From Chrysochromulina tobinii (Eukaryota), in the NCBI GenBank assembly GCA_001275005.1, contig JWZX01003385.1, forward strand, positions 1 through 64,000: a stretch of DNA of 64,000 nt, read 5' to 3'. The notes under the pieces were generated by a model. The model did not search any database and had not been told where the DNA came from. It saw nothing but the letters and a program-made list of their open reading frames with translations. A program made the translations under genes and the position numbers. Position 1 is the stretch's first letter. Each line of letters begins with the position of its first letter. This document shows positions 4,184 to 45,622 of the stretch, one piece after another.

Positions 4184-7100
4184 ATGGGCGTGCCTGCCTT
4201 CTACCGCTGGCTGGCCGACAAGTACCCGAAGATCGTCGTCGATTGCATCGAGGACGACCCGGCCCACGGGCCGGTCGACGCGAGCCAGCCGAATCCGAAC
4301 GGCCACGAGTTCGACTGCCTCTACCTCGACATGAACGGCATCATCCACCCGTGCGCGCGCCCCGAGGGCCGGCCGCCGCCCGCGACGCACGAGGAGATGT
4401 ACGCGGCGATCTTCAAGTACATTGATCGCATCTTCTCGGTCGTGCGGCCGCGCAAGCTCCTCTTCATGGCCATCGACGGGCCAGCGCCACGCGCCAAGAT
4501 GAACCAGCAGCGCACGCGGCGGTTCAAAGCGGCCAAGGAGCGCGCCGACAAGGCGGCCGAGACGCTTGCGCTGCGTGCGGAGCTTACGGCGCAGGGGCGC
4601 GTGCCGCCGCCGCCTTCGGACAAGACTCCCTTTGATTCGAACGTCATCACGCCCGGGACTCGGTTCATGGCCGACCTCGCCCACTGGCTCCGGTTCTACA
4701 TCCAGCAACGACTGCACTCCGATCCGGGCTTCGAGGGCATTCGGGTGATCCTGTCGGACGCGTCGGTGCCAGGCGAGGGCGAGCACAAGATCATGGAGCA
4801 CATCCGTCGGCAGCGGGCCCTTCCGGGGTACGAGGCCGCCACGCGCCACGCGTGCCCGGCTGCGGCTCGCATGCAAGTGCTCACCACGGCGCCGTCTCTC
4901 CCTGATTAGGTACGAGGCCGACACGCGCCACGTCATCCATGGGCTCGATGCCGATCTGATCATGCTCGCACTCGCGACTCATGAGCCGGTACGCCGAGTG
5001 CATGCTGAGGACCTGCCTTGCATGCAACTGCTCACCACAGCGCTGAGGACCTGCCTCGCATGCAACTGCTCACCACAGCGCGCGCTCTTCCCCACTCCCC
5101 ACTCCCCACAGCACTTTTCAATCCTGCGCGAGGTCGTGCTCGACCGGAAGGCGCAGGAGAAGCAGAAGGAGAAGATCGCCAACGGCCACGTGCCCGGCCC
5201 GACGCCCCTCCAATTCCTGCACGTGTGGACGCTGCGTGAGTACCTGCAGCGCGAGTACTTCGAGGGGGTCGACTGGAGCCTGGTGCCTGCTTGATGACCT
5301 CCTTGATGACCTCCTCGATGACCTCCTGATGACCTCCTGATGACCTCCTTGATGACCTCGTGATGACCTCGTGATGACCTCCTGATGACCTCCTGATGAC
5401 CTCCCTGGGGTGGACTGGAGCCTGGTGCCTGGGGGGCTTCGACCTCGAGCCCAAGCCCTTGCATGCATGCGCTCACCACGGCGCCTCCCTCTTCCCCACA
5501 GGTGCCCGGGGGCTTCGACCTCGAGCGCGTCATCGACGATTTCGTCTTCCTCTGCTTCTTTGTGGGGAACGACTTCCTTCCACATATCCCGGCGCTCGAA
5601 ATCCGCGACGGCGCGATCGATATGCTCATCTACTCTTACAAGGCGTTGCTGCCCTCCCTCGGCGGCTACATCTCGGACGCGGGCCGCGTCCACCTGCCGC
5701 GGGCGGAGGCCGTGCTGCGCGAGGTGGCGCAGTTCGAGGAGGAGGTCTTCGAGCGCTCACGACGGCGCGAGGAGGGGCGAGCTCGCGCGCAGGCGGCACG
5801 CACGATGCAGGAGGGCGGGCAGGTGGCCCCGGGTGCCTTCGGGTCGCTCTACCCGCCGCGTGATAACGGCCAGAAGCTCCTGTGGAATGCGATGAAGGCC
5901 TTCGCCGATGCGGCCGTGATGGACGCCGTACTGCCCATCCCGGCTTCGTCCATTTCGTCCGGCTTCCACAAGGCGTCCTTCCACTTATACCTGACGCTGC
6001 TCAACCTGCACGACGCCTCGCAGCCCGACGGCTCCTTTTTGGTCAAATGCAAGCGCGCGCCGCGCAAAAAGGGCGCTGACGAAGCCGGCTTCGTCGAGCA
6101 TGCGAACGGTCTGCTAGGCGCCGAAGGGGTCGGTGCGGAGGGGGGGGAGGCGTCGGTAGAGTGCACTGTGGACGACTTCAACATGAGGCTCGCGCTGCGC
6201 CTGGAGAAGCTTGAGGAGGCGGCAGCGTCGCAGCCCGATGTGGTGCGTCACGCTGATGAGCACTCATGAGCGCTGATGAGCACTGATGAGCACTGATGAG
6301 CACTGATGAGCACTGATGAGCACTGTCCATCAGGTGCGGTACGGCGAGAGCGGCTGGAAGGAACGTTACTATGCGCACAAGCTGCAGGTGCACAAGGGGG
6401 ATGAGGCGATGAAGCGCTATGTCGTCGGGTGCTATGTGCAAGGCCTCTGCTGGACCCTAATGTACTATTACCAAGGGGTGCAGGACTGGGGCTGGTTCTA
6501 TCCCTTCCACTACGCGCCGTGTGCCTCTGATATCATCGGGTATGCGCCCTCACTGCCTATGCCCTCGCTGCCCTGTGCCCTATGCCTTGTGCCCTAGGCC
6601 CTCGCTGCCCTGTGCCCTATGCCTTGTGCCCTAGGCCCTCGCTGCCCTAGGCCCTCGCCATGCCCTCGCTGCCCTATGCCCTATGCCCTCGCCATGCCCT
6701 CGCCAGTGAGAACACCAGCTGCCCTCCTGAGCATGCCAGTGCTCACCACGGCGCCCTCGCTTCCCCACAGGCTCCACGAGTTTGCCGGCGGCCAGTTCAC
6801 ACTCGGAGCGCCGTTCACACCCTTCCAGCAGCTCATGGCGGTCTTCCCACCGTCCTCCGGCCATGCACTGCCGGAGAGCTACCGCACCCTCATGGTGATT
6901 GCGCCTGATTGCGCCCCTCATCCTGCGCCCCTGATTGCGCCTGATTGCGTCTGATTGCGTCTGATTGCGCCGCATCCTGATTGCGCCCCTCATCCTGCAG
7001 GTGCACCCCGCCTCGCCCATCATCGACTTCTACCCCATCGACTTCCGGATGGACCTCAACGGCAAAAAGTTCTTCTGGCAGGCGATCGCGCTCCTCCCCT

Positions 7101-8027
7101 TCATCGACGCCGCACGGCTGCGCGCCTCGCTCGCGCCGCTCGACACGACGCTCGAGGCCGAGGAGGCGCGACGAAACTCATTCGGGGCCGAGCTCCTCTT
7201 TGCGAGGGCTTCGTCACCGCTGGGCGCGCTCATCGTCGCTGCGACCGCTCACCACGGCGCTGCGAGCGCGGGAGCGCCGTGTCGAGCGCCACTCGACATC
7301 AGCCCGTACGTGCCGGGCTTTGGTGGCGCGCTGTCGTGGGCCGGTACGGTCGCCGATGGACCAATGATGACCGCTGATGACCGCTGATGACCGCTGATGA
7401 CCGCTGATGACCGCTGATGACCGCGTGGGGTGGGCCGGGCTCCCCACTCCCCGCGCATGCAAGTGCTCACCACGGCGCCATCGCCCCCCTCCCCCCACAG
7501 GTGACCGCGTGGGGTCGGCGGGCTCCCCGCTCCCCGCGCCGATCGGCGGCGACGCGTACGGGCTAGCGCCCTTGAAGGAATCCACGGTCGCTGGTGCGGA
7601 GTACACGCCTCCGGCCTACGTGACGCACGTGCCTCGACTGCTGCCGACGATCCACCTGCCGCCGATCGTGCTGCAGCCGCATGATCGCTGCCAGCTCTCG
7701 CGTGACTCCGAGGCGGCGTGCCGCTCCCTCGCCGCCCGCCTCGCGACCTATGGTCCGGGCAGCGCGGTACCCGTCGCGGTGGGCGGGCGTGGCGGCGGAC
7801 CGCGCTACGGCGGAGGCGGCGGAGGCGGCGGCGGCGGAGGCGGCGGCGGCGGCGGCGGCGGAGGCGGCGGAGGCGGCGGAGGCGGAGGCAGAGGCGGACG
7901 TGGAGGCGGCGCTCACGCCGTTGGCCACGCGGTGGCTCTGCAGGGCGGCTATTCACAGCAGGGCCACGCGGGGCTGCCGCCGCAACGGCACCGCTCGGCG
8001 CCGATGCCGCTCGGTGCACGACGATAG
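4184..8027 (+). CDS. XRN2: 5'-3' exoribonuclease 2 (XRN2/Rat1), 8 exons
   Basis: Motifs [81 protein letters not shown] introns 4828-4909, 4989-5111, 5283-5501, 6243-6333, 6540-6770, 6895-7000, 7344-7500 restore the frame; Gly-rich tail. Confidence 0.93.
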
Positions 8028-8226
8028 GGATGCTTACATGCATCCCCATTGGAGGTGAGTGGAGGCGAGGTGTCGGGTGGAGCGAGGGTGGGCAGAAAGT
8101 GGCCAATGCGGTGAGCAGAAACAGGCAAACGAAAGAGGGAGTTGCGGCTCTGCACTGTGCCGCTTCTGCCTCATATGATGTAATACTCGGTCGCGTCGGT
8201 TTCGCGTATCCACCGTTTGCGCGTTC

Positions 8227-10789
8227 ATGTGCGTTGGCTCCCGTTTTCCTTTCACAAGCGCCGTTTTTTCCTTTCACACCATCGTCCTGCTGCTCTTTAA
8301 GACGTGTTTCGCGATGCCGATTCAGCCGTGCCACTGCTTCTCCATGTGCACCGTAGATGAGGCACGCCAATTCCATCGCAACCTGCCCGGGCCCATAAAC
8401 CGCAGTAGCCCGTGGGCAGGCTACCTCAACGCCGTGTATGGCACCGAGGCTCGGCTGCCATGGCCATTCGATCTGCGTTCTCTCACCATGTTTTATCACA
8501 ACGACCGGCGCTGGAGTTCACGCCATCCAACGACAGAATGGCCGATGGCGACGTGCGCGCGGCGAGCACAGCCCGAGAGTAGGGGCCTGAGTTGGAATGG
8601 CCCGACGACGACAGTGTGTCCCTCCCACATATGCGCTCGCTGGACTGTGCCGCCGCCGCTGCCCGAGGCCGCTTACTCGGCGTCCGCTCTCCTCCCTCCG
8701 ATGATCCTACTGCCCGAAATCGGCAGGCAACCGCCAGACATCACCACGGCTGGCGCCTACTGGCCACTGCAGCCGGCGGCCCTTGGCGGGTACGCCGCCG
8801 CCGACGGGGCCGAGAGTAGCTCGCCGAACTCGTCCGTGCCGACGGCGAGCTTAACGCCCTCTCGAGTACAATGGGCCGCGACGCGATCTGGAGGCTGGGT
8901 CGAGGTGCTGCGGGAGCCCTCCGGCCTCGAAGGCCAGGCCGGGTACGGCTGCTGGTTCACGCCGGCGAGTGGCACAGGTGTGTGCTGGGTCCACGTGGAT
9001 TGATGGCTATTGATTGCTTTTGATTGGTTAACACCGGCGAGCGGCACCACAGGTGTGTGTGGGTCCAGATTGATTGCTACTTTTCGTTGATTGATGGCTA
9101 CTAATGGCTACTGATTACTCTCTCGGTTGCTTGTGATTGCTATCGACTGCTATTGATCGGTTCACCCCTGCGACCGGCGCAGGCATTTGGGTCAACGTGG
9201 GGCGCACCTGGGCAGTCGCGACCAAGCCGGAGCTATACCTGCCGTGGTCCGAGGGAGACCTCGTCGGCCGTTGGCTTTCCAAATTTGGGTTTCCACAGCG
9301 GCGTCTCGTCGAGGATCGAGATTTCGAGCTCAGCGTGAGCATCTGCCGCGCACACGCGGCCGCCGAGGCGCTCAAGACGGCGCGAGGCGGCGCGCTGAAG
9401 ACCGATCGATGCGAGGCGGAGTGGTTGTTGCGCCGCCGCCCTCCGAATGCGTCTGCGGCGGCGAGGAGGCCGACACCTTCCGTTTCGTCACCTTCCGTTT
9501 CGTCACCTTCCGTTTCGTCACCTTCCGTTTCGTCATCTTCTGTTTCGTCACCTTCTGTTTCGTCACCTTCCGTTTCGTCACCTTCCGTTTCGTCACCTTC
9601 TGTTTCTGCGCTGAGGCCGTTGCCTTCAGGGCCGCCGCTGGCCACGCTCCCTTCAGGCCCTTGTATGATGGCAGGTCATCAGTGGTCGTCAGTGGCAGGA
9701 CATCAGTGGTCATCAGTGCTCTCCTCGGGCCCTATGATAGGAGTGGTCGGCTCGTCGCAAAGCCCGCAGCATGCATGGAACCCGTTGCGCTACCGCCTCG
9801 TGCCGCATGCAATGTGCCGGCTGCACGATACGTGCCGCTGCACGCTCGCGGCTGCCGCGGCGGCATCGGACCCTAGTGCTCTTCCGCGACGCGCCCGGGA
9901 CGGCGCTCAGCACGACGCGGCGCCCGCCAGTCAGCCCACGGGGCATCCGCTCAACACGACGCGCTCGGAGGCTCTCTCGGGGGACGCTCATTGGCTCGGC
10001 TATCCCGAGATATTCCCATTTATGGCATACGAACTTGGCCTCGACAGCGTCCAGATTGGGCCGATCGCAGGCGGGGCGTACCGAGGCGACGCCTCTGTGA
10101 ACGGCCAAGGCGACGCCTCGGTGAGTGGCAGGGCTGCTAGTGCTAGTGCTGACAGTGCTGCTAGTGGCAGTGCTGCTAAAGCCGGTAGTGCTGGGAGTGC
10201 TGGTCCGGCTGCAGGAGCGGGCGGGCAATTAGGGCAATTAGAGCAATTAGGGCAGTTAGGTCAGTTAGGTCAGTTAGGTCCGGCTGCAGGAGCAGGCGGG
10301 CATGGCAGCCGCCGAGCTCGCCCTCTCTCGAGCGCAGCGCGTCCGCTCCCGCCCCCAGGCACCCCAGGCTGGCGGGCGGAGATTGTGATCACGACGGCTG
10401 CATGCATGGGGGCGCCCGTTAGGCGCATGCCCAAACTTGGCTGGCGGACTTGCTTGGATGGTTGGGTGGAGGTGCGAGCGGGCTACTTGGGCGACGATGC
10501 GAGCGGGTCCACGGTGGCTGGCCATCCCAACATGCATCACAATCGCGGGCGGCGAGAGAGCGGTGATGGCACGCGCCGTCAAGTGGGCGCCGTCGCGGGC
10601 GCTGGGCGTGCGTGTGACTGTGACCAAACCGCCCGCCTCCTCAACTGCGATGGCGCCCACTGGAGCTGCCGGCCCTATTGCAGGGCGCCACACCAGTCTG
10701 ACAGCGCTCGCCGCCAGATGCTGTGCTCCCGCGGGGATTGTGCCGGGTGCCAGTTCTGCGCGGCGCCTCGGGGCGTACTTCCGGTTTGA
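8227..10789 (+). CDS. Uncharacterised Cys/Trp-containing protein; intron 8978-9182
   Basis: ORFs 8227-9003 and 9137-10789 join via a GT-AG intron to give GYGCWFTPASGT-GIWVNVGRT; start uncertain; possible further in-frame intron 10203-10277. Confidence 0.55.
9474..9605 (+). repeat. 15-bp coding tandem repeat (SSPSV)n
   Basis: ccttccgtttcgtca repeated about 8 times. Confidence 0.9.
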
Positions 10790-11268
10790 TACCGACGGTC
10801 TGCGGACTGCGCAGTCGGCGCTCTGGATCGTTCTACGTTCACATCTGCAGCCGCTCACGGTTTGCGGAAACCGCAAGCTCACAGCCGTTTCACACAGGGC
10901 AGTAACCATGTGTTAGAAATCACACACATTCACATTCACACGTGTGTCGTGTTCTCTGTGGCCATCCGCTGGACATCTTCCTGTTTGTGCAGAAGCATCT
11001 TCTTGGGCGTTTCCAGCATGCTCCGATTACAATTGTGTCAGATAATTCACACCAATGGTTTAACCATTCACAATCAGAAAAATTTCTCGATGCGACGCCT
11101 GTGAAGTCCACCTCGTCGGGGACGATGAGCGATCTGCTGCGTCTCTCTGGCGACGGCTCCGGCACTCGTTGGGGCTTCAGGAGCGACGAAGAAGTGCGAG
11201 CCGGACCTGAAGATCATCGTGAGCCTGGGACTCCGAATCCCGTACCGGCGCGCTCACCTGAGAGGCCC

Positions 11269-12329
11269 ATGCCGCCCGATCCTGAGTACGGCACCTCCGA
11301 CTACTGGGAGAGGCGGTATGCTGAGCGCGTGGACGAGCAGACCTTCGAGTGGTATGGCAGCTTCGTCGCCCTCGAGGACGCGATCGTCGCCGCGTTGCCC
11401 TCGACCAAGGCTCTCATCCTGCACGTCGGCAACGGCAACAGCGCGCTGCCCGAGCGGCTCTGGGCGTGCGGGTACACGTGGCAGCACGCGAGTGACATCT
11501 CCCAAAGTGTACACCCAGCATGCGAGTGCTCACCACGGCGCGACTCTCGCTTTCCCCACAGGTACAAGTGGCAGCACGCGAGTGACATCTCGCCCACGGT
11601 GATTTCTCGTATGGCCGAGCGGACGAGGGACTGCGAGGGACTGCACTGGGCAGTGGAGGACGCGACTTGCATGCCGCACGCCATGGAGACGTTCGACGCC
11701 ATCATCGATAAGGGCACGTACGATGCGCTCGCGACCGGATCGTACCGCGAGAGGGCGTTGGTCTCCGAGGCGAGCTTGCATGCAGATTGCGACTGATGAG
11801 CACTGATGGCCTCCCTCATCAGGCGTGGCGGGTGCTCCGAGGCGAGCTTGCATGCTGATTGCGAGTGATGAGCACTGATGGCCTCCCTCATCAGGCGTGG
11901 CGGGTGCTCCGAGGCGAGCTTGCATGCAGATTGCGACTCATGAGCACTGATGGCCTCCCTCATCAGGCGTGGCGGGTGCTCCGAGGCGAGCTTGCATGCT
12001 GATTGCGACTGATGAGCACTGATGGCCTCCCTCATCAGGCGTGGCGGGTGCTCCGGACGGGTGGCGTATACATCCTGATCTCATCACTCGAGTCGACGGA
12101 GCTAGCCCTCGGTCCGCCTGCGTGGAGGCAAGGCGAGTGGCACGTGTCCAAGAGCAGAGTCGAGACGGGCATGGGGCGCAGGTGCTTCGTCTTTCGCGCC
12201 ATCAAGCGTCAAGGTACCACCGACGCGAGCTTGCATGCTGATTGCGACTGATGAGCACTGATGGCCTGTTCCATCAAGCGTCAAGGCACCACCGACGCGC
12301 AGCGAGAACAGGAAGTCAGCGCCACATAG
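11269..12329 (+). CDS. Class I SAM-dependent methyltransferase (METTL13 N-terminal / EEF1AKMT4-like)
   Basis: YGTSDYWERRY, FEWY, ILHVGNGNS, FDAIIDKGTYDAL, AWRVLRTGGVYILIS; introns 11472-11561, 11770-12038 (GC-AG) and 12214-12285; TAG 12327-12329. Confidence 0.85.
11770..12054 (+). repeat. 4 x 72 bp tandem array of (53-nt GC-AG intron + 19-nt exon-like piece)
   Basis: Unit gcgagcttgcatgc(a/t)gattgcgactgatgagcactgatggcctccctcatcag-gcgtggcgggtgctccgag starting at 11770, 11842, 11914, 11986. Confidence 0.92.
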
Positions 12330-13943: not shown

Positions 13944-16900
13944 ATGGCGGCCTCCCCCATTTTGGTCAAGGAAGCTTTTGGGGTCAAGGTCCCGCGCCCT
14001 CGCGTGCTGCAATACTCCCCACCGTTACCCTTTGAGCGTGACAAGGCCGTGCCATTCGATACGAGCTTCTCGCCGGTTGGCATCATGGCCGACCTTGCCT
14101 CCATCCCTCCCGCGTACGGCCACAAGAACCTCCTGAAGGCGTGGGAGCACGGGGAGCATGCACGCCAGCAGCACTCGCCGCGACCTGGCTTGCCAGCCGT
14201 GCCTTCGACGCATGCGCCGCTCAAGCCCATCCGCCGCCTCGACTTTGGCGCCGACAGGCGGAGCATCGGCCTGCTGCAGGTGCGAGTGCCGTCGTCGTCA
14301 GAGGGCAGTGGTTACCCGGCGAAGCGTCCTTTCAGCCCGCCTATGCACCTCAAGCATCTCTTCGTGATGCCGCACTATTCACCGGAGCTGCGCGCCGGCG
14401 ACGCCCCGCCCTCGCCTCGCCTCTACCTGCCACCGCCAACGCCTCCCCAGTATGGCGTGCCGGTATCGAAACGCAAGCACTCGTCGCAACGGATGGCGAT
14501 TCCACACGAAGGCGGCAGCGTCGGGACCACGGGGGTGGCCTCGGCCCCACTCCTCACGGCCCACTACACGGGCAACTACACGCTCTCGTCGTCCCCTTCG
14601 CTGCCCATGCTACTGCCCTCAGGCCCGCGAAACGCCCCCAGTGGAAACGCCGCCTCCCCTCCTCCCCCCCAAGTTTCGTCACCGTATGGAGGACCCGAGC
14701 TCCCGAGGGCCGCGTGGTCCACCGGCGCCGTGGCGAGCACCGGTCGCAAGTTGACGCCCTCGTCGTCGCTGCCAGCGCTTCCACAGATCCATCCCAGAGC
14801 GCATGCCGATCCGACCCAAATTAGGCAAGACGCGTCTTCTGCTCTGGGCCGACCCAAATTAGGCAAGACGCGTGGAGAGGCTACGATGATGGCCACCGAG
14901 GCCACCGCCATGACGGAGGCGGATCTCGCCGCGATCTCGCCGCGATCTCGAGGCGATCTCGCCGCGATCCGGCTGCAGGCGGTGCGGCGGGGGCAAGTGG
15001 CGCGACGCCGCGCTGTGGTGAGCACTCGAGCGACTCAGCAGCACCTCGCCGCTGCGGCAGAGAAGTATGATCCAAATATGGGACGGCTGCCTAATATGGG
15101 ACGTCCAGCGCTGTGGGAGGCTCGAGATTCCCACAGCGTCGATGAGACCTCTGCGCGCCACCTCGCGGCCATCAAGCTGCAGGCCGCACGTCGCGGGCAC
15201 GCGCAGCGATGCAAGCTGCATGCGGCGCGCCCAGCCCTGCATGACGCGCCCGTCGCGGCGCATGCAAGTGCCCGGCACGGCGCACCGACGGCCTCCGCGA
15301 GTGTGAACGTGAGTGTGAACCCCATCGGCTGGGTGCGCGAGATGGTGGCGCCATTCGCTTGGGTGGTCTCGGATGCGCGCATTGGCCGACTGGAGCACAT
15401 GGCGGCGGGGGGGGGGCTGACCGTTGAAGAGCGTGCTGAACTCCTGGAGGCCGCGCGCACGATGCAGGCCATCCAGCGCAATGAGCGGAGCCAGGCCAGG
15501 GAGCACCGCCATCAGCCGTTGGGGGTGCCAACGGCCGCCCACGACGGCGCCCTGCTCCCGGATCGGCGTGCCAAGGGAGGCGCCCACCACGGCGCCAGCA
15601 AGGGCGCGCAGCACGGCGCGATGAAGGGAAGGAGGGAGGTGCGACGCGCCGTGGTGGGCGAACCGCCGCTGGGCGCTGCGACGGGCGCGACGACGGCGGA
15701 GGCGGCGGCGGTGCCGAAGCGGGCCGCGGACAAAGGCGCGAAGGACATCGCGGCTGCTGCTGCCCAAGACGGCGCCCAAGAGGCCAGGGTGTCCAAGGGC
15801 GCGCCCAAGACGGCGCCCAAGGCGGCGTCGGGAGCGGCGCCGAGCGCGGCGAAGGCGGCGTCCAGGGGCGCGCCCAAGACGGCGCCTCGAGGTGCGTCGG
15901 CAGCGACGGCGACGGCGGCGGCCATGGGCGCCGTCTTGGGCGCGGACGTCTCGAATGGGTTTGCAAGCAGCTTGGGACGCCACTTTTATGCCGTCAATGT
16001 GGATGCGGTCGTGGCGCATGCGGTCCACGAGGTTCTCGACTCCGTCGTGAGCTTGGGCATCGACGAGCACGCGAGCGCCGTCGCGGGCGCAGCCTTGGCG
16101 CCGAGCGTGGCGAAGCCGGCGTCCAAGGCCGCGTCCAAGACGGCGCCCAAGGCGGCGCCCAGCGCGGTGCCGAGCGCGGCGAAGCCGGCATCCCATGCCG
16201 CTCCCAAGACGGCGCCTAGAGCGGCGCCCAGCGCGGCGCCGAGCGCGGTGCCGAGCGCGGCGCCGAGTGCGGCGCCGAGTGCGGCGCCGAGTGCGGCCAA
16301 GTCGGAGGCGGAGGTGGCGGCGGAGGCGTCGGCGAAGGCGGAGCAAGAAGCGGCCGAGAAGGCCACGATCGCCATCCAAGCGCGCGTGCGCTCGAGCTTC
16401 GTCGCCAACGGCTATCGCAACGAGCTCAAAGCGCGCCGCGCGGCTGCCACGATCATGCAGGCCTCCTACCGTGGGCACACCGGCCGATCCGCAGCGGCCA
16501 AGCAGCTGCGTGTGGAGGCGCATGCGGCGGCGCTGGTACAGGCCCTCGTGCGCGGTCGCTCGGAGAGAAAGGTGCAGAAGCTCGCGGTAGCCGCCTCCGA
16601 GCCCTCCTCCGCCGAGCCCGCAGCAGCAAAGCCCGCAAAGCCCGTCATCTCCGAGTCATCTCCGAGTTTAGTCATCTCCGAGCCCACCTCCGCCGAGCCC
16701 GCAGCTGCAAAGCCCGCAAAGCCCGTCATCTCCGAGTCATCTCCGAGTTTAGTCATCTCCGAGCCCACCTCCGCCGAGCCCGCAGCTGCAAAGCCCGCAA
16801 AGCCCGTCATCTCCGAGTCATCTCCGAGTTTAGTCATCTCCGAGCCCACCGCCGTCGACCTCGTCACCCCCAAGCCCGACAGCACTGATACCACCGCCTT

Positions 16901-26350: not shown

Positions 26351-29300
26351 ATGGCTGAGTTGACCCTACCCTCCAAGTTCAAGACTCTTTGGCAGCACTG
26401 CTCCGCACTCTCGAATGCAAACTACTGGGTCAGTGTGGATGGGCTCGGCAATGCGGAGCTGGAGGACGACATGCGCTCGGCGGCTCACGTCGTGCATGGC
26501 GGCATGCTGCACAAGTTCCGCAAGTCTGGCCGCGAGAAGCCGCACCGGCGTTTCGTGCGCGCGACGGGCGGCACAACTGCCCCGGATGGACGGCGCTCAC
26601 CTGTCGTGCTCCAGTGGGACAAGAAGGCCGCGCCGGTGGTGCGTGCTGACGAGCAGGTGTACGAGTCGTGCTTCCAGGGCGGCCCGGCACCGGACGCCCC
26701 TGGTTGCTTCCAGGTCATCCTCGACAAGCGGATGGTCTTCCTCGTCGCCGACTCCGCTGAGGAGAAGCAGATCTGGGTGCTTGGTGACCCTAAATGGAAC
26801 CCTAACCCCAACCCAAACTCTCACCTTAACCCGAACCCGAACCCTAACCCTAGGTGCGCGGCATTAACGCGCTCGTCGCCCAAGGGATCTGCATGCTGCA
26901 GCGTGACGACGAGCGGCTGGGCGCCGAAGTGGCCCCCGACGGGCCGGGCGAGTGGAGCGCAGTCGTTGATGCCGAGACTGGCGCTGTCTACCTTCGCGAC
27001 TACTCGAGTGCGAACGAGCACTGGATCGTTCCCAACCAGAGTACGCTCTCGATCCGCAAGGCTGACCCATGATGACCGATGATGACCTCTGAAGACCAAT
27101 TATGACACCCGATGACCTCTGATGACCTCTGATGACCTCTAATGACCTTCCCGCTCAGGTGCTGCCGGGCTGCCACCGCCGCCACAGGCCGCTGGCCGGT
27201 CGGGTGCACGCCCACCGCCGCTGCCGCCCGAGGCGTACGAGGCCGAGCCGGACCAGAGCGCCAAGAGCGAGGTTGGAGACTATAATGAGGGCGAAGGCCC
27301 AAATATGGACGGAGACCCAAACATGGACGGATACCCACGCGGCAATTCGCGCCTCACGCGTCCGTGCTCATCACAGCGCGCGTGCCTGGAGAGCGCACCC
27401 GCGCTCAAGCCATCGGTGCTCCGCACAGCACTCCCGCCGCCGGGGCTCACGGAGGAGGCGCCGCGCCGTGATGATTCGCACGTGCGGGATCCGCTGGCTA
27501 ATTGGATGATCAATCAGGCCGAGGAGCGCGCGCGCGTCTTCCGCGACCTGCAGGCTCAGGTGGACTGATTGCCTCTCTGATGGCGTGCATGTGATTGCAA
27601 TCGATTGGCATCCCTGAGTGCCTCCCTGCGGGCTTGCATGCTGGTCTCCATGGTGGGTCCTGATGGCCTCCAATGGCGCCTGATGGCCTCTGATGGCTTC
27701 GGATGACCTCTGATGACCTCGGATGACCTCGGATGGCCTCGGATGACCTCTGATGACCTCTTATTGACCTCTGATGACCTCTGATGACCTCTGATGACCT
27801 CGAGTCCGCAGGTGGACGACGAGGAGGAGCGCCGGAGAGTCGATCTCGAGGAGGACGAGCGACGCCAGCGCGAAGTAATCAGGGAGGCAATCAGGGAGGT
27901 GAAGGGCAGGGAGCAGAGGCAGCGCGAAGCCGCCGACGAGGCCGAGAGACATCGCCGGATGGCGGAGGAGCATGCGATCGCTCAGGCCAAGTACTGAGTA
28001 CCTCTGATTACCCCGGATTGGCACTGATGGTCCCTGAATGCTCAAATGAGCACCCCTGATTACCCCTGATTGCATTGCAAGGCATGCAGGTTCAAACAGG
28101 ACAAGTACCTCTGATTACCCCTGGATGCACCTGGTGGTTTGCAGGTACGAACAGGAAAAGGCTGCCTGGGAGGCGGCTGAGAAGATTCGACACACAGCAA
28201 CGGCGACCGACCAGCTGCAGGGGGCGTTGATGACACGGGACGCGCCCACGCTGCGAGCTGCGATCTCGACGTACGGGCCGATCCTCGAGGACGCCGGAGC
28301 GTCGTCCCGGGCGGACTTGGAGTTGGCCAAGGAGTACCTGACGAAGCTCGATGCCGCAGCGGCCACCTTTGCCAGGCAGTACGCTGGATGACCTGATTGA
28401 GCCTGACTGCCCCTGAGTAGCCCCTGAGTACGTTGGATGGCCTGATTGAGCTCGGGCGGGGAGATTGAGCCGCTGAGTACGATGGGTTGCTTCGTACGAC
28501 TCAGCCGTCTGAGTGCCCGCTGAGTGCTTGCTTTCGGATCAAGGCGTGCTTGCTTTCGGATGCTTGCAGGTACAACGCGGCAGTTGCAGAGCTCCACCAG
28601 CTGACCCATGCGGACGTGTCGCAGCTCGAGGCCGGGGCGACGTTGACGAGACTCGGCCACGTGGCGGAGCGCGCCGCGGCGCTCGGCGCACCCGAGGATT
28701 TGATGCATGCAGCGCAGGTGCGCGCGAATGCGCTGCATGCAAGCCACGTGGAGCTGCTGCACGCGCGCGCGCGCGCCGAGGCGGAGGTGCTCGACACGGC
28801 GCGCGCGACGCATGCCATCGGGATCGTGGGGGCAGACGCATTGCGCGCGGCGCTCGCACACGCCGCCTCGGTGCAGCTCGAGGGCGAAGTGCTCACCACG
28901 GCGCAGGCGACGCTCGAGGCGCTCCTTCGTGCCGAAGCCGAGCGTGAGCTTGAGCACGCCGCGGCGACACGCGCGCTGGAGGAGGCGACAGCGGCGGCAC
29001 AAGCCGAGCTCATGCGAGCTGCGGAGACGGGTGAGACGCTGCGTGAGTTTGGACGCTGCGCCACCCTCCATGAGGCCCTCCAACGCGCTCTCGCTCATAA
29101 TCTCGCTGTGCCCGTCGAGCGCCGTGTCGAGCACCGTGGGGCCGAAGAGGCGCGGCAGACGCTGATCTCCCTCGAGCTCGCCGAGCGTGCGCACCTCGAC
29201 GAGGTGCGCCCGGGATTGCCACTGAGTGCCCTTGATTGCATCGCTCATTCACCATGAGGCAGTCTCTGATGGCCTCTGATGGCTTCCCACTAGCATTCCA

Positions 29301-34740: not shown

Positions 34741-34905
34741 ATTGAGAGTATGGCTGTCGGTCGGTCAAGAGGTCAAGGAGCGCGTGTGTCGCGTCGGCCC
34801 TTCATTTTGCGTTGCGACGATTCCTCCATAAGGCAAGTCGATCCATTTGGCCTTCACAGTCTGTCCGATGCGGATGCTCAGACAAGGACTTCATGATGTG
34901 TCGAG

Positions 34906-37709: not shown

Positions 37710-39230
37710 TCATCGATCCGTAATGCCCATGAGCACGACGCCTTCCAACAGGCCCTCGGGCCTGCCCAGAGCCTCGCCGCCGCGGCGTCCACGTCCTTGA
37801 AAGTGGCCACGCGATGCTTGCTTATGGAACGAGCGTTGAAGCCGTGCTGCTGCTGCATGTGCCTCGATGCCATATGTGCTCTCTCCCGCAGCGTGCTCCT
37901 GCGCGTCGCGTCTGCCTAAGAGCTCCTGGAGCCACTCCCTCACCTCCCCTAACCAGCCAATCGTGCCCTCCATCTGCGCCGCGGGCTGCGCCTCGCGCAC
38001 GATGCGCTGAATCTCGACCATCTTGTGAGCCTCCTCGAGGTCCTCGCGCGAGACGATCGCTTGGATCTGGCTCTTGAGCTGCGGGTGCTCCCGCATGACC
38101 TGGATGAGCTCTGGCATGGGAAGCCCGGCGGCCTTGGGCTGCGTCGCTTTTGTGTGCGGAGTGTTCAGAAGCAATGGATTCTTGAGTATCTCCCGCGATG
38201 CTGGCCGCTGTGTACTGTCTTTCGTGACCATGGCGGCTAGTAGGCCGCATAGCTCGAAAGAGTAGTGGGTACGCAGTGATTGGAGGTCGAGTGGTTGTTT
38301 GCAGATCACGCGCATCAGGTTCATCACGTACGCTGCGCCCTTGGCCTTCACAGCCTGTGATGGAGACGTGCGGGCAATCAGTGAGGTTGAAACAAAGAGC
38401 CGTAGGTCAAGCGGGTCAGACGAGCCCAGCAGACGAGCGTGGCAGGGGAGCATGGCCGCGGGCATATATATATATGGGCTTGCCTGGTCTGTCCAGGGAG
38501 GCTTCAGTGCCATGACGTGGTACAATGTGCAGCCTAGCGCCCAGATGTCAGCGCCACGATCGTATGCAAGGCCCTGACAGAGCTCCGGGCTCATGTACAG
38601 CGGAGTGCCGCACTGAGTCTGCGCTTGCATGTGCGAGGCCGTCAGGGACTTTGACATGCCAAAGTCGCCGATCTTGATGTCGTCCTCCTGTGTTAGCAAG
38701 AGATTGGCTGGCTTTATGTCCCTGTGAAGCAGCTTCAGATGATGGTGACAATATTCGAGTGCAAGAAGGCTCTGTGCAGCCCACTTGAGGACCACGAGCT
38801 CTGGAAAAGGGCATGCTGGGCGGATTTTTGCTTGTCGCTTTATCCGAGTGTCAAGGTCGCCACCTTCAGCAAACTCCATGAACATGTATAGCGACAAAGT
38901 AGACTCCTCGAGGTAGGATGCATGGTACTCGATGAGATGGGGGTGGTGCAGCTTCTTCAGGCAGTTGATTTCTTCAACCTGACGAACAGCTGCACTGATG
39001 CTTAGCCCGCGACACGGCACCTCCTTCATCACGAGCTTCTTGCCAGTCATGCGATGGACCACGAGGAAGACCGTCCCAAACGATCCCGCTCCGAGTTTCT
39101 TCAACTTCTTGTACGCCTTGGCATTTTCTGGCTCATCGTGAACGGGTGAGGTTTGGCTCTCTGGCAACTGGACGAACGCTGGCGCATCGAAGGACACCTG
39201 GCGCGGTGGCGCCGCTGGCTGTCGTCGCAT
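37710..39230 (-). CDS. NIMA-related (NEK) Ser/Thr kinase with C-terminal IQ-like motif
   Basis: GAGSFG, VMKE, HRDIKPAN, DFG, GTPLYMSPE, DIWALG; probable in-frame GC-AG intron 38355-38483. Confidence 0.9.
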   Translation of the reverse strand: MRRQPAAPPRQVSFDAPAFVQLPESQTSPVHDEPENAKAYKKLKKLGAGSFGTVFLVVHRMTGKKLVMKEVPCRGLSISAAVRQVEEINCLKKLHHPHLIEYHASYLEESTLSLYMFMEFAEGGDLDTRIKRQAKIRPACPFPELVVLKWAAQSLLALEYCHHHLKLLHRDIKPANLLLTQEDDIKIGDFGMSKSLTASHMQAQTQCGTPLYMSPELCQGLAYDRGADIWALGCTLYHVMALKPPWTDQASPYIYMPAAMLPCHARLLGSSDPLDLRLFVSTSLIARTSPSQAVKAKGAAYVMNLMRVICKQPLDLQSLRTHYSFELCGLLAAMVTKDSTQRPASREILKNPLLLNTPHTKATQPKAAGLPMPELIQVMREHPQLKSQIQAIVSREDLEEAHKMVEIQRIVREAQPAAQMEGTIGWLGEVREWLQELLGRRDAQEHAAGESTYGIEAHAAAARLQRSFHKQASRGHFQGRGRRGGEALGRPEGLLEGVVLMGITDR

Positions 39231-39389
39231 AGCAGAAGGGTTGCCGTGCGTCTCCCTGCAACACGGTGCTCGCTTTTCCTGAAAACCTTGGAGAACCTAA
39301 CTTCATGTTTCACCACGTTCGTTGGCCGCGTCATCTTTTACAGCGGTCTTTCCTGAAGGGGAATTCGAGACCGGTTTCTTCTTATCAAC

Positions 39390-41159
39390 ATGTGGGCCCT
39401 CTTGATAGGACTAGGACTGCTCGCTTTGATCACGGTGCTCGCAGTTTTCGGCGTCGTACATCGGCGCTCATCAGCTATCCGCCGCCGTGAAGATCTGAGG
39501 CCCCTCCACCCGAACGGGTCCTTCTCGCTCCGCCGCGCCTTTGGCGTCCTCCTGCAGAGCTCCGGCCGCAGGAGCACTCGCCGGACCCATCCGCCGTGGT
39601 ATGCTGCGCCGTCGCGTGGCCCGGGCCGCATCGTGCGCACCTCGAGTACCCTCTCGTTGAAGGACATCGATAATGTAGCGGCAGACGACAGCTCCGACGA
39701 TGGTATCAACTCCGATGTCGAGGACGCACGCGACATCGAGGACTCGTTCGGCGTGCCCCCATCCGCGAACGACGAACCGTGCGCGCCTTCGCGCGGCGAC
39801 GCGCTGCTGTGCGCGGTGCCTCCGGAACTCTGGGTTGACGTGCTCTGCGCCGCGGGCCCGCACGCGGTCCGCGCCCTGCGCGTCACGTGCCGGCAGATGC
39901 ACAGCCATCTCGACGGCGCATGCTTTTGGCAGTCGCTGTGCAAGCGCGTCTTCGCGCCGTGGGCGGTGGCGCTGCAGCCCACCTCGCTCGGCTGGGAGCT
40001 GGCGGCGCGCCCGGGCGGCTCCTTTTTCAGCGCTCCCCAGCACAACCTGGGCCGCGCATGGCGGCTTCGGTACCTCACGTGCTGCCGTGATCACCACACG
40101 CTGCGTCAGGCGGCCAGTCATGTGGGCTACCGGCCGCCTCCACCGCCCGCACCGGTGGCGCGCCGGCGCCCGCCCGCGCCGCCGCCGCCGCCGCCGCCGG
40201 ACGCATTCGCGGATGGAGCGGCAGCCAACGGCTCGAGCGGAGATGAAACAACTGATGAGACCGAAGAGGGGCCTCGTCCAACTGCCGCCGGCTCGGGCGC
40301 GGCCGCCTCGTGTGTCGCGATCGACCTCGAGTCGAGTGGCGGGCTGCCGAGCGATGAGACGGAGGACGAGGCGGTGGGCCGCGGCGGCGGCGGTGACGAG
40401 GCGTCCGAGGTGGCGGCCCTGGCGGCGGCAGCCTCGAGATCTGAGCTCGACCTCGAGATCTCGATCTCGCCCACCGAGCTCGCCGAGCTCGGTGCGTCCA
40501 CGGCGTCTCTTCACACCATGACGTCTCTTCACACCATCGGCGACGAGCCATCGACCATCTCGAGCTACCTGCCGCACCTGTTGCTCATGGCGTGCCACGC
40601 AGCGGAGTTGCCCTCATTACGGCAGTCGTGGGGAGGGCGAGGGCCCTCAGCGGCACAGGTGGCTCGTGCCCTGATGCGAGAGCAGCAGCCGCGTATCGAG
40701 ACGCTCGTGGCGCTCGTGGCACGCTCGTGCCGCACGCAGCGCCGCCTCGTCCCAGTCTGGCGACGGGCGCGCGTCGATGAGCTACCGGAGATTCCGCTGC
40801 CCGACGGCAGCGGCGGCGGCGGCAGCGGCGGCAGCGGCGGCGGCGAGGACGAGGACGAGGATGAGGACGGTGGCAGCGGCCGCATCGGCAGCGGCCGCAT
40901 CGGCAGCGGCGCTGGCGGCAGGTGCGCCACGCGCAGCGGCCGCGTGCGACAACTCCTTAGCTTGCTCGCGCACGCGGGGGCGGGGCCGCCCGAGTGCTGG
41001 GTGGCGCACCTCGCCAAGGGCGGCGGCCAGGGCGCGGGCGCCGATGGGCTGCTTCCGTCCACGGCAGTCGCGCGCACGACTTGCTGGATGCTCGTCGTGT
41101 CGACGAGCCGCCATGCCGTGTGGCTCGACTTCCTCATGCTGAGGCAGGAGGGCTGGTAG
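39390..41159 (+). CDS. N-terminally membrane-anchored protein with an F-box-like segment
   Basis: Hydrophobic N-terminus; LLCAVPPELWVDVL...LRVTCRQMH...FWQSLC resembles an F-box. Confidence 0.55.
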   Translation: MWALLIGLGLLALITVLAVFGVVHRRSSAIRRREDLRPLHPNGSFSLRRAFGVLLQSSGRRSTRRTHPPWYAAPSRGPGRIVRTSSTLSLKDIDNVAADDSSDDGINSDVEDARDIEDSFGVPPSANDEPCAPSRGDALLCAVPPELWVDVLCAAGPHAVRALRVTCRQMHSHLDGACFWQSLCKRVFAPWAVALQPTSLGWELAARPGGSFFSAPQHNLGRAWRLRYLTCCRDHHTLRQAASHVGYRPPPPPAPVARRRPPAPPPPPPPDAFADGAAANGSSGDETTDETEEGPRPTAAGSGAAASCVAIDLESSGGLPSDETEDEAVGRGGGGDEASEVAALAAAASRSELDLEISISPTELAELGASTASLHTMTSLHTIGDEPSTISSYLPHLLLMACHAAELPSLRQSWGGRGPSAAQVARALMREQQPRIETLVALVARSCRTQRRLVPVWRRARVDELPEIPLPDGSGGGGSGGSGGGEDEDEDEDGGSGRIGSGRIGSGAGGRCATRSGRVRQLLSLLAHAGAGPPECWVAHLAKGGGQGAGADGLLPSTAVARTTCWMLVVSTSRHAVWLDFLMLRQEGW

Positions 41160-41353
41160 GTAGGCTTCTCAGATTTCTTGAAAGTGCGCATGGTACTTAG
41201 TTAAGTGAAAAGTATAGCGGGTCCTCACCAGATCCGCCCAATGCTCCGCTGATAAGCGCCTGCGACGCGCTCAACGCGGCGCCCAAGTTGGCGCGGCAGC
41301 GGGAAGGTCCATTGCGAGTCGCTTACCACGTGGTGGAGACGGCGCCGAGCGCG

Positions 41354-41844
41354 ATGTCAAAGACTGCTGAGGACCACAAGGCGGATGGCAACAAAGCCTT
41401 CCGCGGGGGTGAGTACGCCGAGGCTGTGCGCAGCTTCACCGAGTCGCTGCGGCTCAACCCGCATGATGCCCTCGTTCTCGGCAACCGCGCTGCAGCTTTC
41501 GACAAGCTGGGCGAGCATGAGCGCGCGATCACGGACTCGATGGCGTCGCTCCGGATCGACCCAACATATCTCAAAGGCTATTTTAGGTTGGCGACGGCGT
41601 ACATCGCCGTCAACCGGCCGCGCGAGGCGCTCGAAGCGGTGAAGCAGGGTCTCATGATCCAGCGCACCAATAGCCAGCTGAGGCAGCTTGAAGAGCAGGC
41701 GACAGCGATGATCGCAGCGCAGGATGGGGCAGAGGAAGACGGCGAGGTGGACGAGGAGGATGACGAGGACGAGGACGAAGACGAGGACGACGAGGACGAC
41801 GAGGACGACGAGGACGACGACGACGACGACGATGAGGGGTATCT

Positions 41845-41886
<42 letters not shown>

Positions 41887-43644
41887 GCAGCACTCGCAGC
41901 CGATGGACACGAGCAGCAGTAGCCGTACGCGAGCACGGGTGCCCGCCGAGAGCCCCGAGCCGGCCGCGCCGTCCGACCCGGCCGAGGCGGCAGAGGCCGC
42001 CAAGGCGCGCGGCAACGACCTGTACAAGCGCGGCGAGTACAGCAACGCTGTCGACTACTACTCGAAGGCGGTGCGGCTGCAACCCACGAACGCTACGTAC
42101 CGGATCAACCGGGCGGCGGCGGCACTGATGCTCGAGCGCGCGGAGGACGCGCTCTCGGACTGCCAGGCGGCGCTCGAGTCCGAGCCGACGAACATCAAGG
42201 CGCACGTTCGAGGGGCTAAGGCCCGCATCATGCTTGGTCAGCTGTCCGAGGCGCGCCGGCACCTCGAGCGGGCAGCGACGCTGCCCACCGCCGACGCGAC
42301 AGTCGCGACGGAGCTTGCGGGGCTGGGCGAGCTCGAGGCGTCGCTCAAGTCCGGAAAGGAGGTGCTAGAGCAGGCGGGTGGCGCGGCTGCGCGGGAGGCT
42401 TTGAGGCTCTTCACCTCGCTCTCGCAGCGCTGCCCTTGCTCCGAAACGGTCGCGTGCCTGCAGATGGAGGCGCTCATGCGGGCACGTCCCGACCAGGGGC
42501 CGCAGCAGGTGGTGGCCGAGTCGGCGCGCTGGCTGCGCAAGTCGGCGGACAACCCCGGACCTGCTCTGCGTGCGCGGCAAGAGCCTGTACAAAACAGGCC
42601 AGCTCGAATCGGCTCTCAAGCACTTTGCAGAGGCGCTGCGGCAGGATCCGGACCACTCGGCGTCTCGTCAGATGCGAGCTCAGCTTCGTCAGATCGAGGA
42701 GGCGAAAAAGGCGGGGAATGAGGCCTTCTCTGCCGGCCGGTACGCCGAGGCGATCCAAAAGTACACCGAGGCACTCGAGATCGACCCCGAGAACGCTGAC
42801 CTGAACGTGACGTTTTGGACGAATCGAGCGACGGCGCGCTTCAAGAACGGCGAGTACACGGCGGCGGTGGCGGATTGCGACGCGGCGCTCGCGGCGGCGC
42901 CGCGCCACATCAAGGCGCTGCTGCGGCGCGCGGCGTGCAAGCTCGAGCTCGAGGACTACAAGGGCGCCATCAGTGATTACGAGGAGGCGCAAGCCATCGA
43001 GCCAGAGGACCAGACCATCCGCCAGGGGCTGCGCAACGCGAAGCTCGAGCTCAAAAAGTCAAGTCGCAAGGACCTGTACAAGGTGCTCGGGATCACGAAG
43101 AACGCGACGGACCACGAGATCAAGAAGGCATATAAGAAGAAGGCGCTCGAGTGCCATCCGGACCGTTTGGGCAGGTCTGATGGCCCCTCATTGCCTGCTG
43201 TTCCGCATGCTGATTGCCCTCCCTCAATGCATGCTGACCTCGAGCATGCATCCGGACCGTCTGGGCAGTGCCCTGATTGCCCTCCCTCATTGCATGCTGA
43301 CCTCGAGCATGCATCCGGACCGTCTGGGCAGTGCCCTGATTGCCCTCCCTCATTGCATGCTGACCTCGAGCATGCATCCGGACCGTCTGGGCAGTGCCAC
43401 ACCCGAAGAGAAGGCCGTCGCCGAGAAGCGGTTCAAGGAGGTAGGCGAGGCGTTCGAAGTCCTCTCCGACCCAGCGAAGAAGCAGCGCTGGGATAGCGGG
43501 GAGACTCTCGACGAGCTCAACGGGAACGGCGGCGGGCGCGGCGGCGGCGGCTTTGGCGGCATCGACCCGTCGGATCTCTTCCGCGCCTATGCGCAGCAGG
43601 GCGGCGGTGGCTTCGGCCGGGGGGGCGGCTCCCGAGGCTTCTGA
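41354..43644 (+). CDS. DNAJC7: DnaJ subfamily C member 7 (TPR repeats + J domain); apparent +1 frameshift near 42556, intron 43175-43394
   Basis: TPR clamps KADGN, KARGN, KKAGN; J domain DLYKVLG...HPDRLG|SATPEEK...FKEVGEAFEVLSD; acidic tract and polyQ at 41750-41886. Confidence 0.88.
43209..43398 (+). repeat. 3 x 63 bp intronic tandem repeat containing copies of the upstream exon end
   Basis: ctcgagcatgcatccggaccgtctgggcagtgcc at 43239, 43302, 43365. Confidence 0.92.
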
Positions 43645-43880
43645 CCACCAGGCGCAACACGGACGAGACTGGCCGTTTGTCTCGTAGCGCGCGGACGGGC
43701 GCGCGTGTCTGTTGGGACAGTTGGGGCATGCTGCAGGGATTTGTACACGACCGACGCTGAAGCGACTCGCTCGGCAAGGCGCTCGTAATCCCGCGTGGCG
43801 CGATGACGTGCATAATTTGGCGTGTCGACGGCTCGCCGCGTGCTCACCGCCTCATTCGTTAGGATAACTATTCGACGCGA

Positions 43881-45622
43881 ATGTCGACTTCGTGTGAACG
43901 TCAAATTGAAACGCCCGTGTCGAGCGACGAAACTTCTCGCGACGCGACATGGGCTGGGAGTTCCCACCACTGGCCGCGACGGAGTCGCATGAAAAACGCG
44001 CAAGAGCTCATCAGCACGTGGTCAGGTCTTCCCGAGTGCTCGCTCGTCGTTTTCCGACACTTGCAGAAGACGGGCGGTTCGTCCATCGTGCGTGCCTTCC
44101 ATGAACTGGAGCGCGACATGCTATGGACCATCTACGGCTACTGGAGCCCATGTTGGCAAGGCCGCTCGCAGCTCGTGGCCCGTGGGCGAATGCGCTGGCT
44201 GCGCATCGTGCGAATGCTCGGCGAGCGCGCCAACTCGTCAGCCGCAGGCACACGCATGCCGCAGAGCTGGCTGCGCGAGTTAGAGTCCATGCCATGGCCG
44301 ACGCGAATGCTCTTCCATTTGCACCATCCAGACTCGATGGTCTGCGGTGGTCTCGAGTCTGTGCAGGCGGAGCTTGCCAAGCTGCGCCCGGTGTTACCTG
44401 CGCTGGGCTGCCGCGTAACCGTGGCCATGGTCGTGCGCGAGCCATGGTCCTTTTTTGTGAGTTGGTACTATTACATTGGCGCCGCACGCTGCGGCTGGTG
44501 CACCTTTGAGCGCTTCGTCGCGCTCAACCCGAACGCACAGTCGCACTTGACGCTGGGCGGCGCGCCGCGCATTTACAGCGACAAGCTGCGTGCGCAGCAT
44601 GCGCGGCACGACCCTGTGCTGCTCGCGCGCGTGCACACGATCGTCGCAGGCATCGACGTGATCGGCGTGACTGAAAGGCTTGACGAGTTCATGCTCGAGC
44701 TGTGCGACGCTGCCGGGCTGCGCGTGTGCCCGAGGCTGAGCGTGCGCAACGTGCGCAGCCCAGGGGCGGCCTTGGGCGCGCTGCGGGAGGTCGCGTTGCG
44801 CGCCAACGCCTCGGTGCTCGACGTACGCCCTGACGAGAGCTCAGGCTCGTTACACCGACGCGCGGTTGCGGTCGCTGGCTGGCTTGACGAGGCTCTGTAC
44901 AGTCTCGCCTCGACTCGTGCGCGCCGTCGTGGGCAACCGGACCGCGCGAGGCTCGAGGCGTGGCGGATGCAGCCGATGTTCGAGAGTAGCGGCTGCTTCG
45001 GTTTCGCGCCCGTCACGGCGCCCGCACACAGCGCGCGCAAGATGAAGCCGTCCATCGCATCTTCAGCCCGTTCCATATTAGGATCAGCCCGTTCCGAGGC
45101 CATGACGAGTGCGTTCCCCGTGGCGCCCAGAGACGGTGCGGGTGGGCGCAAGGAGAGCCAGGGCGTCTTCGCCGTGCCGTTTGAGCACACGTCGTCCCGA
45201 CAGCACGCCTTCGCCCTCGAGTTGATGCAGAACCTGAGCGTCGTTCCGATGGCAGAGCGCGAGCAGGTGAAGCGCGAGCTGCTACGATTCCAGGCCGAGC
45301 ACGCATGCAAGTGCTCACCACGGCGCCCCCCTTCCCCCCACAGGTGAAGCGCTCGCTGCGCGAACAGCTGCGATGCGCTGACGTGCGTGCGGCGCTGGCG
45401 GGTGTGGGGGCGCGGGCGACGCGCGACCTGCCCGCCGTCCTGCGTCCATGGTTGCTGCCAGAGCGTGCGCAGCCACTGCAGCAGGGGCACGGCGGCGAGC
45501 TGGCCGGGTCTGGAGATTGGCGCGAGATCGTGCAGCACCAGGGCGAGCTCGTCGCCATGTGCTGCACGAAGGTACACTATGCGCATGCGCCACGTTTGGA
45601 TAAGGCGAGCTGCTCGACGTGA
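43881..45622 (+). CDS. Sulfotransferase-family protein; intron 45267-45343
   Basis: 5'-PSB-like FRHLQKTGGSS; 3'-PB-like VVREPWSFFVSWYYY; IGVTERLDE; start uncertain. Confidence 0.75.

Follow-up and report, generated by a model that had tools for sequence, protein, structure and literature searches.

The origin of new spliceosomal introns is a long-open question. Among the closest described systems are introners, whose target duplications are given as 3–9 bp in PMC9860276 and as 3–8 nt for Polarella (bioRxiv 10.1101/2020.10.14.339549). The haptophyte alga Chrysochromulina tobinii, with a reported GC content of 63.4% (PMC4580454), was among the genomes screened for introners, and zero introner families are given for it in PMC12130899. 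Here we analyze a 64,000-nt stretch of this genome (assembly GCA_001275005.1, contig JWZX01003385.1, positions 1 to 64,000 of the forward strand; hereafter the window) and describe cassette A, a short module with a 24-nt core that is shared by the 3' sides of introns in unrelated genes. Each of these introns records its own making in one exact and one ragged end and in a dated copy of the landing site, and in this alga, which is of a cultured type, such introns probably number in the thousands.

In cassette A introns, as described for the Symbiodinium introners and Polarella introner classes 4/5 and 6/8/10 (PMC9860276, bioRxiv 10.1101/2020.10.14.339549), the element supplies the acceptor, the duplication supplies the donor and the length of the message is left unchanged. 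Unlike the present introns, those of Symbiodinium and Polarella are described with a fixed, short duplication (3–9 bp), an element that constitutes the intron and, often, inverted ends. Here the duplication is variable (13–50 nt) and makes up nearly half of the intron, and only ~40–50 nt are shared. Introners described from marine Chrysochromulina (PMC9860276), likewise a haptophyte, measure ~70 nt, have no terminal inverted repeats (TIRs) and carry the 5' splice site, a geometry like that of the mirror form presented below. Their reported duplication is 4 bp versus 14–50 nt here, as judged from the published description.

Intron gain by tandem genomic duplication and double-strand-break repair, reviewed in PMC3443670, shares with cassette A a duplicated exon that gives a splice site and direct repeats that flank the gain. 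Unlike the gains treated in that review, cassette A introns are not wholly duplicated exon with a doubled AGGT: a foreign repeated module supplies the branch site and the acceptor, at many sites and with no AGGT requirement. Replitron-1 of Chlamydomonas, as presented in PMC10288648, resembles cassette A in its exact end at a dinucleotide, fuzzy end, variable duplication and fixed orientation. It differs in size (0.9–3.6 kb versus 40–80 nt), and here we saw no short direct terminal repeats, no Rep gene among the 30 open reading frames (ORFs) of the window, and a bias towards genes. Retrohoming of linear group II introns (PMC3280974) and the R-loop model for Micromonas (PMC4540971) likewise combine an exact 3' join with a ragged 5' join bearing microhomology and extra bases, together with a coding-strand bias. 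Unlike those systems, the introns described here are spliceosomal, with no ribozyme or reverse transcriptase (RT), and the accounts in the two sources proceed without a long exon duplication.

Cassette A introns work like introners yet fail the whole-intron and short-duplication tests. Similar introns occur in unrelated genes, at no fewer than 136 sites, and splicing was precise in all three cases compared; whole-intron similarity, a fixed 3–9-bp duplication and TIRs were not found (inverted flanks in 4 of 136 sites). Because such introns would escape screens that require similarity along the whole intron, counts of intron gain may be too low. In a literature search that left subscription papers and introner consensus files outside its range, the motif strings were not found and none of the titles listed described the architecture.

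Cassette A introns in the window

The core occurs in the window at 4869, 5020, 5058, 5461, 6731, 7455, 11518 and 45303, with 0, 2, 2, 2, 1, 0, 1 and 0 mismatches, respectively. All eight copies lie on the plus strand, sense to the genes, as an original prediction made from the letters of the window had reported, and no core match appeared in 100 shuffles of the window. The eight cores represent seven introns, five in the gene XRN2, one in a methyltransferase-like gene and one in another gene; those at 5020 and 5058 form a tandem pair with a 38-nt unit inside one intron. Cassette A introns are real, multi-copy and richer than first described.

XRN2 (4184..8012, plus strand) encodes 944 aa once its seven introns, all on the same strand, are removed, and a Pfam XRN_N match bears out its label. 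Its frame is colinear with haptophyte orthologues at each junction that these cover, and the nearest named XRN2 proteins are from Prymnesium parvum (74%) and Chrysotila carterae (73%). RNA contigs from runs X1 and X7 (freshwater and mixed-culture) were compared over window positions 4100–6240, and the three introns compared are skipped exactly.

Intron 1 (4828..4909, 82 nt, GT-AG) is the simplest example: an exon copy (4828–4850) is followed by a linker (4851–4868), the core (4869–4892) and a tail with the AG (4893–4909). The copy is identical to the start of the next exon (4910–4932) at 22 of 23 positions, the tail ends CTGATTAG rather than CCCCACAG, and the intron is skipped in X1 and X7 contigs, where 12 letters fit each side. 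Intron 2 (4989..5111, 123 nt), also skipped in contigs of both runs, has its own donor arm, the tandem cores (5020–5043 and 5058–5081) and a tail; no exon copy was found in it, nor any match to the spliced junction by alignment. The composite intron 3 (5283..5501, 219 nt) corresponds to a 219-nt skip at 5283–5501 in an X7 contig and contains 11-nt repeats (5292–5404), a junction copy (5407–5450), the core (5461–5484) and a tail. Its copy agrees at 41 of 44 positions with the exon sequence on both sides of the junction (18 nt upstream, 25 nt downstream).

Intron 5 (6540..6770, 231 nt), placed by frame colinearity with orthologues, comprises local repeats, the core (6731–6754) and a tail, with no clear exon copy. 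In intron 7 (7344..7500, 157 nt, composite), placed by junction alignment and frame colinearity, 10-nt repeats (7365–7424) run into a copy of the next exon start (7418–7454), followed by the core (7455–7478) and a tail. The remaining two XRN2 introns, intron 4 (6243..6333), a type-B repeat intron, and intron 6 (6895..7000), also of repeat type, were placed by reading-frame colinearity and serve as internal controls: neither contains the core at up to three mismatches.

The other two host genes have introns of the simple form, delimited from sequence. In the first (11472..11561, plus strand, 90 nt), an exon copy (11472–11501), linker, core (11518–11541) and tail follow one another; the copy matches 11562–11591 at 29 of 30 positions, and intron removal gives an open frame. 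Its methyltransferase label is weakly backed by a Pfam match (E 0.0015) that falls short of the cut-off. The second (45267..45343, plus strand, 77 nt) consists of a copy (45267–45282; 14/16 identical to 45344–45359), linker, core (45303–45326) and tail. It lies in a gene without an assigned family, for which the proposed sulfotransferase label found no Pfam match. The 5' halves of the introns had been described as unrelated to each other, which holds, but five of the seven match the adjacent exon of their own gene. A ninth core, with three mismatches, lies at 15260–15283 within a 1675-aa reading frame and without an acceptor tail; it may be a chance match or an exonised copy.

Exon copies flank the core at most metagenome sites

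A metagenome scan with the exact 24-mer gave at least 132 stretches (loci L001–L133), and all counts for these loci are among the matches listed. From 153 exact hits we retained 136 sites with 100-nt flanks and distinct downstream sequence, some of which are tandem copies at one site. At 93 of the 136, a direct repeat across the core exceeds the 99th percentile of 3000 mismatched pairs, compared with 4 of 136 for inverted flank similarity and 4.7% for random window places. Together with the seven window copies, the sites provided 143 cores for the analysis of tails.

A pyrimidine tail followed by AG is present in 111 of the 143 cores; the other 32 have no such tail. C predominates in the tails, 74 of the 111 terminate in CCCCACAG, and no A-rich or simple-repeat tail was seen. 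In 83 of the tailed cores the upstream copy aligns from the first base past the AG, and in 77 of these anchored cases the exon starts with GT; the GT donor comes from the first copy. Introns of the anchored set span 57–135 nt (median 79). Dropping nine of the 83 (no GT/GC start, more than 70 nt away, or tandem) left 74 clean cases, in which the duplicate measures 13–50 nt (median 29.5) and the linker 0–33 nt (median 5.5), and the joined frame is open across 70 of the 74 junctions. At least 4 nt of the donor arm are kept in 7 of 74, and few acceptor-type copies are cut within the core. Exon copy and linker, ~36 of the median 79 nt, are locus-specific, so whole-intron similarity finds no support. 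The architecture of these introns is, with near certainty, a module between two copies of host exon.

These data support the earlier view that cassette A is a portable acceptor module and not a transposon spanning the whole intron: it occupies at least 136 non-redundant sites, and two unrelated genes carry an identical 51-nt cassette. The companion suggestion of 5'-truncated insertions is disfavored, as the variable 5' side is duplicated host exon and no truncated element. The left edge of the element lies mostly 0–11 nt before GCATGC (quartiles 1–11 nt), more like a cluster than a truncation series, and a simple 5'-truncated retro-insertion would not lead one to expect the mirror and core-only forms, in which the 3' side varies.

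Copies are many, not the few that would have spoken against a mobile module. Ten loci were drawn twice among the 132 listed, which yields ~860 exact-core sites (8646 pairs/10); because three of the eight window copies are exact, this scales to a few thousand sites in all, a rough estimate given mixed strains and uneven sampling.

Landing sites are donor-like. A G precedes the GT at 58 of 74 landing sites compared with 160 of 546 coding GTs, and a purine occupies +3 at 64 of 71 compared with 265 of 546; AG stands before the donor in 30 of the 74 clean cases. The insertions are also biased towards genes and towards the sense strand: 66 of 74 clean cases are sense to the coding sequence, and the 136 listed sites divide into 114 sense, 17 antisense (many of them close calls), 4 weak and 1 unscored, while random places gave 152 versus 148. 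Neighboring copies within loci share a strand in 85 cases and oppose one another in 3.

Mirror, core-only and stacked forms

In a mirror form (L055, L099, L103, L126 and L133), the intron has its own donor arm and core, followed by a copy of the previous exon end that supplies the AG. Such arms are preceded by AG in 12 of 14 cases, and a 14–50-nt copy is present in 7 of 14; in the null test 0 of 14 lay beyond the 99th percentile of the null, a test that tandem copies had compromised. Inserts that consist of the core alone, with a copy on either side, occur at L010, L034, L067, L125 and L132, and arrays of copy-plus-core units are found among the listed loci. Nested events at a single junction are common (for example, L020, L025, L068 and L110).

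The type-B introns form a second family with 10–11-nt TGAT-type repeats, of which the window has 18 clusters. The exon-copy footprint is present in 6 of 18 type-B acceptors, and type B is often stacked with cassette A at one junction.

Conservation and distribution of the core

Changes in 75 imperfect copies fall unevenly along the core: 12/450 in GCATGC, 10/375 in the branch-like GCTCA, 54/300 in the spacer and 57/675 in the rest. The presumed branch A lies 21–47 nt (median 27) from the intron end, and GCATGC recurs in 6 of 29 type-B intron ends compared with 3 occurrences in 11.5 kb of coding DNA. From this pattern, the GCATGC and GCTCA boxes probably have a function, either in splicing or as a recognition site, and the overall identity of the core would reflect descent. 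Two of the seven XRN2 introns have no core, and neither do the window's other introns of repeat type. An Rfam scan returned nine matches at E up to 1, all under the gathering score and none on the core, and no U2 was found in the 10 kb scanned. No hairpin was apparent: compared with shuffled sequence, folding was not improved in four window introns (z −0.01 to −1.75; two folding references began 1–2 nt inside the intron) or in the core.

The exact 24-mer has no hits in GTDB genomes and one in viral contigs, at the end of L159 (4554 nt). This contig, filed as viral, is probably chimeric, because its last few hundred bases resemble a cassette-bearing haptophyte intron. The rest of the module is missing from 55 of the 56 viral hits to a 16-mer, and a 30-nt arm-plus-core pattern gave no hits in GTDB genomes or viral contigs. 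At L018 and L106, from two strains, an exact core apparently stands in frame in coding DNA without duplication or tail, and at L070 (17–51) an inverted core is fused to a forward half at GCATGC to form a palindrome. Local sequence was considered as a template for the linkers and rejected: no excess remained when alignment gaps were allowed, and the value for inverted matches was 5.9 nt versus 6.4 nt in controls.

Transfer between genes and probable intron gain

The module has moved between unrelated genes. To judge from their reading frames, L017 and L122 are unrelated genes, and a 51-nt stretch that takes in linker, core and tail is identical in the two. The intron at 625–795 of L055, in a GDA1/CD39 apyrase gene, holds 47 nt of L099 (191–236) at 94% identity; the source may have been intronic, because one base agrees with the intronic copy in L099 and not with the exon. 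This 47-nt piece is the exon end and donor of another gene, presumably myosin-like, whose 36-aa piece has no Pfam hit. Spread is also local: 7 of 70 same-gene pairs, including the neighbors L011 and L072, are more alike than 99% of the 11,687 cross pairs (p 0.006).

Two comparisons bear on whether the introns are additions. P0002, the product of a close relative on a 7.9-kb ENA contig, is 84% identical to XRN2 across 482 aligned residues; it passes the first three intron positions without a break and terminates in a non-homologous tail. Because ENA proteins elsewhere read into these introns, P0002 is probably an unspliced call on DNA without them. Among five aligned strain pairs, one differs: L096 has an extra 33-nt duplicate and a 10-nt acceptor tail relative to L044. 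In both, the core is antisense, at the end of a gene that we take to resemble family-A DNA polymerase.

We consider it likely that cassette A introns are gains. Two points weigh against this: how P0002 was gene-called is not on record, and the L044/L096 difference could be a loss. As to local spread, at least one of the seven same-gene pairs (L022) represents a single site copied in tandem. Co-inheritance of linker and tail across genes, as a simple fuzzy-end model would have it, is not seen as a class (p 0.79–0.89), single pairs alone showing it. An earlier class-wide value of p 0.018 came from retained same-gene pairs and vanished once these were excluded.

A longer parent element, considered on the strength of shared peptide tails, was set aside, as P0134, P0135, P0137 and P0138 seem to represent several frames of a single locus. 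In P0134–P0141, environmental gene callers enter arm-plus-core introns and produce the recurrent false peptide LIATDDLPCMQVLTTA in database proteins. Annotation is affected more widely, in that the duplications blur splice-junction mapping and callers that do not splice turn the module into such a peptide. Error-prone copying at birth is likewise unneeded: mismatches by codon position (24/536, 27/538 and 44/541; p 0.01) fit ageing of both copies.

Candidate routes of intron formation

As the origin of these introns we put forward templated copying of the module during repair followed by a return through microhomology, an explanation to which we give an even chance. Repair synthesis at a break or stalled end would switch onto an existing intron and copy from it the module, comprising the 24-nt core with its branch-like CTCAC, the pyrimidine tail and the AG. 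The copied end would rejoin the gene a few tens of bases upstream through microhomology, leaving 13–50 nt of exon duplicated; the first exon copy would give the GT donor, and splicing would restore the message. The template would be DNA and the enzyme a polymerase theta-like end-joining enzyme, with selection keeping spliceable products and removing the rest. Since a donor-like GT opens the exon that follows such an intron, return through AG|GT microhomology would favor donor-like targets, and the family would in this way feed its own spread.

Where the copy reaches the core, microhomology of 2–9 nt is present in four of six joins (p 0.004, small n), and L055 has a 6-nt GCTCAC join. A general repair route predicts acceptor-side, donor-side and core-only forms as well as the type-B footprint (6/18), and all occur; repair copying accounts for every form and for the type-B family, as well as for nested events, local spread and the microhomologies. 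For scale, templated insertions by POLQ are given as 2–35 bp, with homology up to 2–5 kb away (PMC4183433). Other observations fit repair copying poorly. Blind repair should leave many neutral intergenic and antisense copies, yet 114 of 136 sites are sense and 17 antisense, a bias to which a splicing-linked route is equally or better suited. With few exceptions the AG end is exact, the donor-to-core distance is narrow (36 ± 7.6 nt, with one case above 50 nt versus eight expected from independent parts), and two of the seven window introns are without an exon copy. The repair route accounts for the exact AG and the scarcity of intergenic copies only via selection and local templates.

The exact AG, the scarce intergenic copies and the narrow donor-to-core distance are handled better by partial reverse splicing, which we hold to be a possible though unlikely origin. 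A spliceosome that has not yet released an excised intron would join the 3' AG of this intron to the sense DNA strand displaced in an R-loop. The upstream 3' end set free in this step would be extended across the following 13–50 nt, making the copy and the new donor, and the trimmed intron RNA, with its branch-region module, would be end-joined to it. An exact AG join, a sense and gene bias (66/74, 114/136), local spread and a ragged 5' join are all predicted. The median start of the retained piece is ~20 nt upstream of the presumed branch A (14 nt and a 5.5-nt linker), and the stretch covered by U2 proteins lies near the start of this piece. Mirror and core-only forms and the intron 3 copy that spans the donor require extra steps. 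Full reverse splicing at R-loops was proposed for Micromonas introners (PMC4540971), and reverse splicing is treated in PMC4122922 and favored in PMC10996645, although the latter describes spliceosomal reverse splicing into DNA as not known. Linear group II introns offer a parallel, with an exact 3' join and a ragged 5' join needing polymerase theta (PMC3280974). The duplication step is added here and absent from the main text of PMC4540971 and PMC3280974. If partial reverse splicing were true, a transposase-free, self-feeding route would lie behind thousands of introns in one algal lineage.

A non-autonomous element driven by an enzyme, either a Replitron-like HUH transposase or a non-long-terminal-repeat RT, would also leave an exact end, a fuzzy end and a variable duplication, and we judge it improbable. 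Replitron-1 is described as inserting after RG, one of its ends being fixed and the other fuzzy and derived from the parent flank, with variable duplications, and a Replitron-like fragment is listed for C. tobinii (PMC10288648). Duplications of long interspersed nuclear elements are variable and can be long, and Replitron insertions favor intergenic DNA, according to PMC9977147; the latter preference is at odds with the gene bias seen here. The AG before 12 of 14 mirror-form arms matches dinucleotide-anchored insertion, and GCATGC is as conserved as the branch box (12/450 changes, compared with 54/300 in the spacer). Against such an element, no RT or transposase family, as might mark the longer parent that the original prediction had proposed to look for, was found among the 30 ORFs of the window. 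Terminal direct or inverted repeats and poly(A) were not seen, either intron end can be exact, and inheritance of the fuzzy end is not significant as a class (p 0.79–0.89).

Alternatively, old introns may have been rewritten, with one arm replaced during repair by exon sequence from spliced mRNA or cDNA and no intron gained. The common nesting of events at one junction, the spliced-junction copy in intron 3 and a constant donor-to-core length that resembles the 30-nt donor arm would all suit such rewriting. P0002 and other relatives, however, run through the intron positions, whole cassettes are common to unrelated genes, and the exon starts with GT in 77 of 83 cases, a donor-like state unusual for inherited junctions; we find this account highly doubtful. 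Lastly, that the motif is only an extended branch-point/U2 consensus of the species is very hard to credit and largely refuted, for although the better conserved GCATGC and GCTCA boxes and the GCATGC in 6 of 29 type-B ends indicate that the core may be in part a splicing signal, it is absent from two of the seven XRN2 introns and from other repeat-type introns, no Rfam family falls on it, and the duplications would go unexplained. The repair, reverse-splicing and transposase routes differ in testable predictions.

Additional features of the window

Tandem repeats are present at other introns of the window. At 11763–12055, four head-to-tail repeats of a 72-nt unit each comprise a whole type-B intron together with ~20 nt of exon. 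A 63-nt unit that holds a copy of the junction-flanking exon is repeated three times at 43210–43398, in an intron of a TPR-DnaJ gene. This gene lies on two overlapping frames, 41354–42721 and 42672–43496 (region of about 42555–42720), a split that is perhaps due to a one-base assembly error. AACCCT telomere-like repeats are present within an intron at 26798–26852.

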